A stretch of 61,866 bases of DNA, counting the filler, from Circinaria calcarea (Eukaryota), in NCBI GenBank assembly GCA_051942165.1. It is 10 parts of 10 records of this genome, joined end to end, with 100 filler letters (N's around TTAATTAATTAA, not from the genome) between each part and the next. Parts side by side here need not be neighbours in the genome. Positions count along the whole stretch, not along the records: positions 1 to 6,111 come from JAVECS010001670.1; 9 more parts are not named here. One strand, written 5' to 3'. This document shows, in pieces, positions 488 to 49,400 of this stretch. The notes beneath the pieces were generated by a model, which worked only from the letters and a program-made list of their open reading frames with translations, did not search any database and was not told the DNA's origin. A program made the position numbers and the translations under genes. Position 1 is the stretch's first letter. The number at the start of each line of letters is the position of its first letter.

Positions 488-498
488 AGGATCGAACC
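488..498 (-). promoter_or_regulatory. Pol III B-box-like motif GGTTCGATCCT downstream of the candidate ncRNA
   Basis: Close to the B-box consensus GGTTCGANYCC. Same strand as the A box, about 70 nt past the T-run, and not inside a tRNA T-arm. Confidence 0.45.
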
Positions 499-567
499 TA
501 AGCTGTCTCTCTTCCCACCATTCACCGCATCCTCCTCCTCCTCCTCCTCCCTCTCCACAGCCCAACC

Positions 568-775
568 AAAAAGAAATCCACTCTACGAAAATGGCAAAAG
601 TTCCTCATCATGACCCCGGAGGATCATGATGAGTACGAAACTCACCCTACTCTACCCTGTAGAAGGGCCGAGCAGAGATGTTGTTTACTTACCTTAGTCG
701 GGCGAGTGCAGGGGTTACGCTAACCCAAACTCCGTAGAGTTTGCGCCGTAACCACCTCGACCACCCGACCAAGGT
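568..775 (-). ncRNA. Candidate structured Pol III-type ncRNA with tRNA-like 5' domain (family unidentified)
   Basis: On the minus strand: 14-bp closing helix ACCUUGGUCGGGUG/CGCCCGACUAAGGU (fully paired only on this strand, using G-U pairs), CAAACUC-UACG-GAGUUUG, GGGUUA-GCG-UAACCC, a hairpin at 645-677 and 13-bp CUCAUCAUGAUCC-UCCG-GGGUCAUGAUGAG. A-box-like TGGTCGAGGTGG at 763-752; T5 run at 572-568. Confidence 0.6.
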
Positions 776-956
776 ACCTGCTTTGGTTAGTGAGAGATTT
801 GGTTGCTATAATGAATATGACCTACTACTTTCTATCTGCATGTGCTGCAGAAGTTTTTGTTCATGGGATTCCTCGCTTGGAAGTTCCAATCATCCTGCCA
901 ACAAGGTGAAAGGATCCTTTTCTCCGATGATGCTTGATATTCTTTCTTCCCATGCT

Positions 957-1740
957 TCATGACTTATTCGCGCCTTGCACTTCCGATAATCCAAGTCGCA
1001 ACTTGATCACTTCAACAATCTCGCTCCACTCTCTCATGGCACCGGAACCAACGTCACCGCAGGCGAGTTGCTTCTCCACCGGCCTCAGAACTTCGATCCA
1101 TCCTTGACGATTCTTGTCAATGCCCCACTCGTCTTCGAGAACTACAAGCTGTTTTTTCGTGACGGGGTGTGTCCACATGGCAGTATTCATCGCAGGAGCA
1201 AGGACAATCCGCTTGGCATTTTTACTCCCTTCAATTTCTCCAGTGGTATCCCAAGCTCGTACGACAGACAGCAGCAGATTATCTGCCATTCCAGCTGTCA
1301 TTTTGGCCATTGTATTTGCGGACAAGGGCGCAATGACCAGAATATGGGCCCATTTTCTGATTTCAATATGTAATATGCCTCCACCTCTGGTCCACGACTT
1401 GTCCCATTCGTCTTCATCGAGATAGATGGCATCTACATTTGGAACTTTCATGAGTTCCTTGAATGGAGGCTGCTCAGGACTTTGCCCGATTAAGAAGTTT
1501 TCGGCCGACTTGGTGAGGAGGATACGAATAGAAAGATGAGGCTGATCAGACAGCGCTTCCACGATCTTGGGGATCTTGATCGTTGCAACGCTACCGCTGG
1601 CAGCTAGCAGGAGGTGACGTTTTCCATCATAGACATGATCAGCGGCGACTAAGGGTGATGATGAACTAGAAGGAGCTCCTGGTTTTGGATGAGGAATCCG
1701 GTCACTACTTTGCGGCGCATTAATATCTGGGATGCGTCTA
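957..1740 (-). CDS. Phosphopantothenoylcysteine decarboxylase (Hal3/Cab3-like HFCD flavoprotein); first exon uncertain (possible ATG near 1818)
   Basis: Motifs RHLLLAASGSVATIK, LHIEIRKWA, APLSANTMAK, APAMNTAMW and LACGDVGSGAM. The frame stays open upstream of the listed ORF to a CTGAT...TAG acceptor near 1738. Confidence 0.9.
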
Positions 1741-2131
1741 TGTGATTATCAGTCGAAAATGTACTGCTGACACAGGAGACCCTCTGGACCTTTCCCGATC
1801 CTTTCTTTGCTCTCCCATTGTTTCAGACCCCGCGCGAGCATAGCGATAAGCTGCCTCGGTTGTTGCTTTCTGCTGCTCGGGCATTCTAGTATTCACAGCC
1901 CGAGAAGGCGGGTCTATAATGGTAGAGTTGAGATACCTACGTTGGCAAATGGTTCACGGCATGTCGTCGAATAAAGGCTTTTAGTTTGACGGGGGGAAAG
2001 GAGCTTCACTTCCCCGTCGATCTACCGGCAGTCTTGGCTCGCTATGAAATCATCACGCAGGGATACGCCGAGCTGTCCCTCAAATTCGTCTCAGAGGCGC
2101 ATCGTATGATAAATACATTTCAACCGCAGTC

Positions 2132-6111: not shown

Positions 6112-6211
6112 NNNNNNNNNNNNNNNNNNNNNNNNNNNNNNNNNNNNNNNNNNNNTTAATTAATTAANNNNNNNNNNNNNNNNNNNNNNNNNNNNNNNNN
6201 NNNNNNNNNNN
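6112..6211. other. Artificial contig linker (N44-TTAATTAATTAA-N44); also at 12318-12417, 18523-18622, 24728-24827, 30931-31030, 37124-37223, 43315-43414, 49504-49603, 55687-55786
   Basis: Identical 100-bp spacers with stops in all six frames; genes break off at them; segment lengths decrease along the window. Confidence 0.99.
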
Positions 6212-37832: not shown

Positions 37833-38036
37833 GATACTCCCCCCAAAACTCCCCAATAACAAATTCTTCAACTCGACCCCGCCGCCCACCGCCTTCAAGC
37901 CATCAAGTCATCTGCTTGACACCCTCATCACCCACACCCACACCCACCACAAGCCATCCATCTCCTCTCCATAAACCCCCGGCCTCCAACCACCCTCCCT
38001 TTCGCCGTACCCAACGAACCCCCCACCTCCTCACAA

Positions 38037-38339
38037 ATGCTCCGCCGCCCGCCCACAGCCATAACCCTCAACAACGAAGACATTCTCCGCTACGACGAGC
38101 GCGCCCTCGCGCGCCGCATGGCCGAAAACGCCGCGCACGAGGCGGCAGCAAGCCGAGGGGGTGCTGCCGCGAACCGAGGGCCCGCGGCGAGTTGGGAGGT
38201 CGGTAACTCGTTTCAAGACGCGCTCCAGCAGCAAAGGGAGGCGGCGAAGAAAGTCAAGGATCCGAACGATGAGTTGAGGCCGCTGCCCGGGGATAGCCGG
38301 GGGAGGACGAGGGAGGAGAGGATTGGAGTGGGGAGGTGA
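38037..38339 (+). CDS. CDC26: APC/C subunit Cdc26
   Basis: Characteristic N-terminus MLRRPPTAITLNNEDILRYD; small protein ending TREERIGV. Confidence 0.85.
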   Translation: MLRRPPTAITLNNEDILRYDERALARRMAENAAHEAAASRGGAAANRGPAASWEVGNSFQDALQQQREAAKKVKDPNDELRPLPGDSRGRTREERIGVGR

Positions 38340-48099: not shown

Positions 48100-48659
48100 A
48101 AAGGAGGATTGGGATCGCTGGAGTTTTTGAGGCCGGGCTCTCTCTCTCATTTCGATAGGAAGAGTGTGTCTGGGGTGATTCCCTTCAAACTTGGAATCGC
48201 AATCGCAATTGCAGTAATATAGATAGATCCCCGTTTCTTTCCTCTCCTATCTAGCAATTCGCATAGCTTTTTGGCTATAGCATCAGCTCCAAAAACACAA
48301 TCGAACCACCTTTTCCCTCCAAACAACCTCTAACAGCAAACTAGATCACCCACTCTCCTCTATAAATAAGTTCCCTCTGTTTTGCTATTCTTCCAGGCTC
48401 CCAAAAACCTACAAACTACAGCGAGTATAGCCCCCTTTTTTACTATTCTTCCTTCTTCCAGCCCCAAAAAAGAAAAAGAAGGAACAAAGCTAGCAAGATA
48501 AGCCCGCACCCACACCTACACCCACCCCGCTTCCTCTTCTTCTTTTCGCGGAACTGGGCATCTTAACTAAGCAATCTACTCTACTTCAATCCAGTCTGTG
48601 GTGTTAGAGTGTCAGAGTGTAAGGCGGGGGAGAAGGAGTAAGCGGTTCGAATCGGATAG

Positions 48660-49400
48660 GTTTTCTTTCTTTCTTTCTTTCTGAGCTGGGAGCTGGGAGC
48701 TGGGAGCTGGGAGATGTGAGGTCTGAGTTTACCGTAAATAGTGAACATGAAGGGTTGGGGGATGCCCAAAAGGCCCCAAGGGCCCAGATACAGGGGACTT
48801 TGTACACCGTACACCGTACACCGTACATCGTACAAGACCCCAAAAGGGACCTCTTTTCTGCTTTTTCTAGAGCTGGTGCCTTTGCCGGTGCTTCCTGCTT
48901 CCTGCTTCCCTCGGGATTGTTTTTTCCTTCGAAAGGGTTTTCCTCCAGCTCCAGCTCCAGCGAAAAGTTCAAGATTGATCGACAGACGGGCGGGATAACT
49001 TGTGTTGGAAGTCATAAGGCTTACCGAGCATGTGTTGCTAGGAGGTCCATGCTCAACACTCTCTACACTCCATAAAAGCACTTTTTCGTAGCATAGATAG
49101 TTCCTAAGTTACATACTCAGGTAGCAATGCCACCATACATTCTGCTGCCCAACAACTTGAGTATTGGTACCCGAAAGCATAAAAAACACAGAAACACAAA
49201 ACGTGTGAAAAGCGAAAAATAAAAAAATGGAAATTGAACTCGGAAGGAGGGTTGCATGAGATTGAAGAGGAAGAGAGGAGATGGATGGATGGATGGATGG
49301 AAGGAAGGGAAAAGCTCTCTCTCTCATCGGGACTCTCTCTCTCTCTCTCTCTCTCTTATCGGGACTCTCTCTGTCTCTCTCTCTTATCGGGCAAATAGAC
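48660..49400. repeat. Cluster of simple repeats: (GAGCTGG)4, (TACACCG)3, (CTTCCTG)n, (GGAT)n, (CT)n
   Basis: Directly visible short tandem repeats. Confidence 0.85.

Follow-up and report, generated by a model that had tools for sequence, protein, structure and literature searches.

The window analyzed here is a 61.8 kb stretch of DNA, searched on both strands (123,732 strand positions for motif counts), from the genome of a lichen-forming (Lecanoromycetes-like) ascomycete. Table 1 lists the features of the locus under study, all of them on the minus strand. The decarboxylase reading frame found there has its C-terminus at 957, the same endpoint as in its homologues. The nearest named homologues are from lichen-forming Lecanoromycetes (65-75% identity), and other relatives show 79-90% identity. 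On that strand, a strongly structured unit lies about 180 nt past the stop codon of the decarboxylase. An initial annotation had placed in it a TATA-like ATTATAG, an A box (TGGTCGAGGTGG), a T5 run and a stand-alone B box (GGTTCGATCC), and all four motifs were confirmed on the minus strand. The two tetraloop caps that it named, cUACGg and cUCCGg, are present as well.

Table 1. Features of the structured unit and its surroundings (window coordinates).
Feature	Position	Strand	Remark
Phosphopantothenoylcysteine decarboxylase (flavoprotein) reading frame	957-1745	minus	Pfam PF02441, E 1.2e-23
GTAGGT, donor look-alike	820-825	minus	upstream edge of the conserved block
TATA-like ATTATAG	806-812	minus	31-37 nt upstream of 775
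ACTAAC-N5-CAG, branch-point plus acceptor look-alike	778-791	minus	abuts the 5' base of the rod
Predicted initiation zone	775-782	minus	from spacing: about 30 nt to the TATA-like motif, about 12-19 nt to the A-box-like motif
Rod domain, 83 nt	692-774	minus	read as a class II tRNA relic
A-box-like TGGTCGAGGTGG	752-763	minus	one inserted G relative to the consensus
7-bp stem with cUACGg cap	726-743	minus	within the rod
9-mer AGGTAAGTA, perfect 5' splice-site look-alike, U1-complementary	686-694	minus	linker directly 3' of the rod
Hairpin 2, 8 + 5 bp, three G-U pairs	645-677	minus	fold z -2.9 (plus strand -1.6)
Hairpin 3, 6-bp base and perfect 13-bp stem (633-604), cUCCGg cap	598-643	minus	z -4.1
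Hairpin 4, weak	578-594	minus	z about -2
T4 (599-596), T4 (591-588), T5 (572-568)	568-599	minus	candidate Pol III termination zone
(GGA)7 simple repeat	530-550	minus	3' of the unit; from the sequence
B-box match GGTTCGATCC	489-498	minus	pattern search
TTTT	473-476	minus	12 nt past the B-box match; more T runs as far as 442

Folding of 780-560 on the minus strand gave an MFE of -108.2 kcal/mol, compared to -69.1 +/- 4.7 kcal/mol for dinucleotide shuffles (z -8.31), and none of the 200 shuffles was as good. The plus strand of this region folds at -74.3 kcal/mol (z -5.0), which leaves the minus strand an advantage of about 34 kcal/mol. When the stability of all N-free 220-nt windows on both strands of the 61.8 kb (n = 5,878) was regressed on G+C, the first three ranks were all found here on the minus strand, with 782-563 as rank 1. 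The next candidate (37981-38260) is merely GC-rich (z -2.0). The MFE structure of 782-563 contains 79 pairs. Eleven of these, spread over every helix, are G-U pairs that become A-C mismatches on the plus strand, in agreement with the earlier description of G-U pairs specific to the minus strand (z -8.3 vs -5.0). In a census of hairpins with a 4-nt loop and a stem of at least 7 bp, two of the 140 hairpins counted in the 61.8 kb carry a c(UNCG)g cap and both are inside the unit (743-726 and 633-604). The fold signal is real, strand-specific and beyond chance (0 of 200 shuffles as good, rank 1 of 5,878 windows). The two cUNCGg caps and the G-U-rich helices point to selection on the RNA. Two structural details differ from that description: the closing helix, given there as 14 bp, exists with 15-17 pairs and a bulge, and of the four hairpins given there the fourth is weak. 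Adding 50 nt of upstream sequence lets CUAACCAAAG (790-781) pair with the U-rich 3' end as an outer helix (-120.4 kcal/mol, z -8.6), and the ends of the RNA given here are therefore provisional.

It seems improbable to us that the locus is a structured element acting in cis, whether for the 3' end of the upstream gene or within the intergenic DNA, or that it folds by chance and has no RNA product of its own. Its position, about 180 nt past the stop codon of the decarboxylase and in the same orientation, would suit such an element, and the plus strand also beats the shuffles, as inverted-repeat DNA would. The strand asymmetry and the 11 G-U pairs speak against it, as do the presence here of both cUNCGg hairpins of the 61.8 kb, the first rank among the 5,878 windows and a conservation above that of the flanks (see below). 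In addition, the 5' block of the unit is found beside unlike upstream sequence in two other contigs, and hence its occurrence does not depend on that gene.

A search of Rfam 15 (4,227 families) found no match at gathering score across the 61.8 kb, in agreement with the earlier remark that hallmark motifs of U1-U6, SRP, RNase P/MRP and U3 are absent. The families without a match include U1-U6, SRP, RNase P/MRP, U3, Y RNA and the Afu_* families. No match at E<=10 was obtained on 350-950, and searches with the halves 685-785 and 555-700 alone returned only noise of 8-20 bits. U6 identity was rejected, there being no Rfam U6 match and no U6 motifs. Y RNA (RF00019), which the closing helix resembles to some degree, was rejected with no Rfam match. 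In Y RNA the 5' and 3' ends form a terminal stem with a bulged C, directly followed by an oligo-U tail; here, AAGUAAAC comes after the closing helix in place of U runs. The U1 5' end motif can be read on the plus strand, as the complement of the linker 9-mer. This resemblance to U1, and those to a U2-like RNA, snoRNA boxes and a telomerase template, gained no support from Rfam. The literature on fungal Pol III ncRNAs was searched and held nothing specific to such a unit; a search on small RNAs or SINEs of lichens returned nothing relevant. To our knowledge, small ncRNAs of lichen-forming fungi are essentially uncatalogued.

The 5' domain of the unit is the rod, which folds at -53.4 kcal/mol (z -7.6) with a P(MFE) of 0.72. 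A cloverleaf-like fold of the same sequence reaches -30.9 kcal/mol, i.e., 22.5 kcal/mol worse than the rod. As we read its sequence, this domain appears to be what is left of a class II (Ser/Leu-type) tRNA after loss of the T arm. An acceptor-like pair of 7 bp (GGTCGGG at 770-764 and CCCGACT at 702-696) has TG after its 5' strand and is accompanied by a D-arm-like segment with a 3-bp stem and a loop containing GG, an anticodon-arm-like stem of 5 bp that is lengthened to 7 bp and closed by UACG, and a variable-arm-like hairpin of 13 nt (GGTTA-GCG-TAACC). The T arm is absent, its position being occupied by ten nucleotides only. Against what we take to be the eukaryotic tRNA-Ser D arm, the D-arm segment matches at 17 of 19 positions with one inserted G. 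In the rod, the D-loop GGUUACG is paired with CGUAACC of the variable arm.

The initial annotation had concluded that the unit is not a complete tRNA, and this stands. ARAGORN found no tRNA gene in the 61.8 kb, also with introns allowed, and at lowered thresholds it returned forced models only, with mismatched stems. RF00005 gave no match at E<=10, including a 101-nt search (685-785). The tRNA resemblance is a reading against a general consensus and receives no score from the Rfam tRNA model, a point against a tRNA-derived gene. A split tRNA, in which a long or spliceosomal intron would join the head to the B box, was rejected, since the acceptor 5' strand finds no pairing partner 3' of the B box, only three of five pairs could form in a T stem, and the ARAGORN intron models are artefacts. 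The rod is flanked on both sides by AGGTA, a consequence of the GGTACC palindrome at the helix base. A MITE with an AGGTA target duplication was rejected on the same ground, AGGTA being a by-product of the palindrome. The class II tRNA relic was absent from the earlier description, and it makes a SINE-type origin a live rival.

Around this domain, the TATA-like motif, the A-box-like motif, the T cluster and the downstream B box appear to be placed coherently for a Pol III unit. The TATA-like motif would lie at about -31 to -37 and the A-box-like motif at about +13; the T4/T4/T5 cluster comes after the last strong hairpin and is followed by the B box, 70 nt beyond T5 and 265 nt from the A box. 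T runs of four or more are absent between 775 and 600 on the minus strand. T5 is a modest terminator, which counts against a Pol III gene. The A box of the initial annotation is found at its site, with the inserted G taking it off the strict 11-nt consensus. That consensus occurs 16 times in the 61.8 kb (14.0 expected), and the TGGTCGAGGTGG site is not among them. The B box, said to complete an SNR6-like layout, is unusual in its position only: the probability of finding a same-strand match no more than 300 nt downstream is about 0.005 (arithmetic from the pattern frequency), but the pattern itself occurs at chance level in the 61.8 kb (2 found vs 2.14 expected). The second B box, at 48644, was rejected since its sequence is unrelated. 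The layout shares with the SNR6 type the order and rough spacing of the signals (TATA-like motif near -30, A-box-like motif near +13, T run, B-box match 70 nt on). It differs from that type in that the RNA is not U6, the A box is the D arm of the putative tRNA relic, and the B-box pattern is not above chance across the window. The case for Pol III therefore depends on signals that are spaced coherently, a head of putative tRNA ancestry and a T cluster directly after the last strong hairpin.

Conservation was assessed in a biocrust metagenome run (X1, word share 0.17), whose contigs were aligned at a likeness of at least 80% and give no cover at 85-168 and 337-504, the B box included. A 241-nt contig spans 564-795 with 7 substitutions in 232 nt and 4 gaps (3.0%). 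A syntenic contig runs over 767-2500, through the decarboxylase, with 146 substitutions in 1,734 nt and 37 gaps (8.4%). In this one pairwise comparison, drawn from a conserved contig of depth 4.2 and a syntenic contig of depth 6.7 that may stem from different organisms, the unit is more conserved than its flanks in one relative (Fisher p = 0.002 vs the whole syntenic contig, 0.0007 vs the intergenic stretch and 0.02 vs the first 266 nt of the coding sequence). In the intergenic stretch 797-956, the syntenic contig has at least 19 substitutions and 4 indels among the listed changes. The X1 pieces at 1-59 and 176-258 show 9 and 11 changes, respectively. Elsewhere in 1-2500, X1 contigs of 95-99% likeness were absent, and the conserved contig is thus probably not from a much closer strain. 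The syntenic contig has three listed changes in 767-833, with changes dense from 834 onward, and no listed change in ATTATAG. Given this low divergence, the conserved block would begin about 50 nt before the predicted start, as for a short upstream promoter.

Two more X1 contigs share the 5' block: contig 4 over 754-823 (12 changes), with homology stopping at 823, and contig 7 over 767-813 (5 changes), with homology stopping at 813. Both run upstream into unlike sequence. X1 contains the first 20 nt of the unit, together with about 48 nt upstream, in three or more contexts (contigs 4, 6 and 7), which could represent paralogues, several species or a repeat. The body of the unit (564-753) is covered by a single X1 contig, and a high-copy repeat is therefore not apparent there. 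A 19-mer scan of metagenome contigs returned 30 loci, all matching over 19-24 nt only, in glycine/arginine-rich coding or unrelated DNA and with no tRNA among them. A 22-mer scan of genome contigs found one chance match in an actinomycete, and a 26-mer scan of viral contigs found none.

These contexts bear on a second explanation, which we consider unlikely: that the unit is a SINE-like retroposon of the AfuSINE2 kind (or what remains of one), derived from a tRNA, low in copy number and without cellular function. The head looks tRNA-derived as judged from its sequence, a (GGA)7 repeat lies 3' of the unit, and the 5' part in at least three X1 contexts with unlike upstream flanks fits a dispersed repeat, which is also a point against a single cellular gene. 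The AfuSINE2 report describes elements of 140-493 bp in Aspergillus fumigatus, present in low copy with degenerate A/B boxes and no cloverleaf fold, one of which has trinucleotide repeats at its 3' end (PMC5063351). AfuSINE2 is a precedent for the size, low copy number, degenerate boxes and lack of a cloverleaf; it has in common with the unit here a tRNA-related head without a cloverleaf, a structured tRNA-unrelated body and the size range, the low copy number fits, and the 3' simple repeat has a precedent (PMC5063351). The unit differs from AfuSINE2 in lacking target-site duplications (no direct repeat was found at its borders in a search of 380-900) and a second copy in the 61.8 kb, and in having a conserved upstream TATA-like region, a conservation higher than that of its coding neighbor and a B box 265 nt from the A box. 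The block shared in X1 reaches about 40-50 nt upstream of the start predicted from the A box, with the TATA-like motif included, a stretch that would be missing from a copy retroposed from a Pol III transcript. For the body, X1 has a single contig. A decaying relic would not be less diverged than the adjacent coding sequence, as the unit is (3.0% vs 8.4%). The two cUNCGg caps and G-U-rich helices, which suggest RNA-level selection, also stand against a SINE, and so does the head, which holds no B box at the tRNA-type A/B spacing of about 30-60 nt.

A third explanation, also doubtful in our judgment, is that the locus is part of a spliced Pol II transcript, either the decarboxylase 3'UTR, the 5'UTR of the next gene or an lncRNA. 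It arises from the splice look-alikes on both sides of the rod, which were absent from the earlier description and allow a Pol II/spliced reading. Under this explanation, 777-692 with the rod would be an 86-nt exon between two introns. Intron 1 would be 48 nt long (GTAGGT at 825, ACTAAC, CAG at 778), and intron 2 would start with GTAAGT at 691 and contain hairpins 2-4. The rod has ACTAAC-N5-CAG against its 5' base and, at its 3' base, a perfect AAG/GTAAGTA (694-686), the 9-mer AGGTAAGTA being the sole such copy on both strands of the 61.8 kb (0.29 expected). The 123,732 strand positions contain 15 ACTAAC and 12 GTAAGT sites, and the chance of their joint placement is about 1e-4 before allowing for the many motif types looked for. 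The homology of contig 4 ends at 823, within 2 nt of GTAGGT. One open frame of 38 codons, stop to stop, spans the rod, and a long pyrimidine tract ending in TAG is found at about 310-287. These splice look-alikes around the rod are not predicted by a Pol III model.

No branch point with acceptor was found 3' of the structured part, and the acceptor candidates at 583 and 480 have no CTRAY-type branch site. The decarboxylase frame ends at 957 as in its homologues and the region lies between genes, which argues against a spliced transcript. Splicing would leave unexplained the tRNA-like head, the T cluster after the last hairpin and the B box, and also why a presumed intron is better conserved than coding sequence. 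Given the many motif types screened, the look-alikes could be due to chance. Under the same explanation, the unit may have a kinship to structured proliferating fungal introns. Introner-like elements occur in multiple copies, exceed ordinary introns in length and are predicted to fold stably (PMC3609843), symmetrical stwintrons carry terminal inverted repeats of 45-55 nt (PMC8469720), and in both the splice signals bound the element itself (PMC3609843, PMC8469720). These elements resemble the unit in a very stable predicted structure, nearby canonical splice look-alikes and parts found in several contexts. They differ in that the signals here are in exon order, acceptor then donor, and no acceptor closes the structured part. 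The structure would consist of an exon and the first part of the following intron instead of a single intron delimited by signals of its own.

We tentatively assigned the unit as a candidate lineage-restricted, Pol III-type small RNA gene that derives from a class II (Ser/Leu-type) tRNA gene and is under constraint, an assignment that has a real chance of being correct while falling short of probable. For this candidate RNA we infer which polymerase makes it, where it starts and ends, its descent from a tRNA and whatever function it may have. The proposal in the initial annotation of an undescribed Pol III RNA of about 200 nt is thus supported in part: the unit is structured, strand-specific, outside Rfam and equipped with coherent signals, and its uniqueness is in doubt, the 5' block being present in at least three X1 contexts. 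According to the preferred reading, TBP/TFIIIB would bind at the TATA-like motif (812-806), and TFIIIC would bind at the surviving A-box-like D-arm segment (763-752) and possibly also at the extragenic B box (498-489). Transcription would start near 782-775 and end in the T4/T4/T5 cluster (599-568), giving a product of about 205-215 nt with no cloverleaf and with the T arm gone. The tRNA relic would be locked as the 83-nt rod with its cUACGg cap through the D-loop/variable-arm pairing. An unpaired linker with the U1-complementary 9-mer, two stable hairpins and a U-rich tail would follow 3' of the rod. At a guess, the RNA might form a stable RNP and use the single-stranded linker as its working surface. 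If the unit is transcribed, it would represent a tRNA gene rebuilt as another stable RNA, one that lost its T arm, gained UNCG caps and became a rod as its D loop came to pair with the variable arm, and the constraint on it would be stronger than that on the neighboring enzyme gene.

Rodent BC1 and 4.5SI are tRNA-derived Pol III small RNAs that are now cellular genes. A description of 4.5SI is given in PMC10137851. The candidate gene is similar to them in its tRNA ancestry, as read here, in its internal A box, in a TATA-like motif near -30 and in a stable non-tRNA fold that replaces the cloverleaf. It differs from them in belonging to another kingdom, in having no sequence relation and in a B box that is extragenic or absent. 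The Neurospora milRNA precursors are described as Pol III transcripts built of hairpins, with a tRNA moiety joined to one of them (PMC3547838). They are, like the unit here, fungal, hairpin-built and tRNA-linked, the unit being of Pol III type only as a candidate (PMC3547838). In contrast to them, the tRNA part here has no T arm and is not a cleavable tRNA. Dicer substrates, moreover, do not typically have conserved loops with UNCG caps.

A more specific version of the preferred reading holds that the unit encodes a Pol III small RNA that is under selective constraint and confined to lichen-forming fungi, derived from a dead tRNA-Ser gene and bearing, as its one long single-stranded segment, a perfect 9-nt 5' splice-site mimic at the foot of the rigid rod. 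We regard this version as very improbable. If the mimic were true, the RNA could titrate or recruit U1 snRNP or undergo spliceosomal first-step cleavage, and it would be a small RNA made by Pol III that naturally regulates the splicing machinery or serves as its substrate. Through the perfect U1-binding site in the linker, a link to splicing is open to direct testing. The linker sequence itself, AGGUAAGUA at 694-686, is unpaired in both the MFE and the centroid structures.

The phosphopantothenoylcysteine decarboxylase reading frame, upstream of the candidate structured RNA gene (the unit) and on the same strand, stays open for 262 codons. No in-frame ATG is found at the point where its closest relatives begin with M (1715-1748, minus strand). 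The sequence at the expected start is ATT AAT GCG, and an out-of-frame ATG lies nearby at 1720-1718. The gene may have lost its start codon or use a non-AUG one, an intron may lie upstream, or the sequence may contain an error. The open frame on the other side of the unit probably belongs to the gene that follows downstream, as its first coding exon. Its DxD-containing start may resemble that of HAD-type hydrolases.

Features beside the unit and elsewhere in the window
Feature	Position	Strand	Remark
Open frame	2-199	minus	runs off the window's start; reads ...MVSSAMHAKDYSIILFIDLDVES...
Decarboxylase frame	1745-957	minus	
Stable fold	37981-38260	minus	second among stretches for stability
Segment with B-box match GGTTCGAATC	48644-48710	plus	only other B-box match in the window

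After the B-box match GGTTCGAATC and 7 further nt comes a T-rich run, together with a (GAGCTGG)n repeat. In this segment, which shows no sequence similarity to the unit, ARAGORN detected no tRNA. The stable fold in the table was ranked in a scan of 220-nt windows on both strands of the whole window. Its z score against shuffled sequences was only -2.0 at a G+C content of 67-69%; its stability is therefore a composition effect.

Runs of 44 N bases (18 runs, 792 N in total) occur in pairs spaced approximately 6.2 kb apart between positions 6112 and 55786. One of them, near 6112-6155, breaks a branched-chain aminotransferase-like reading frame.
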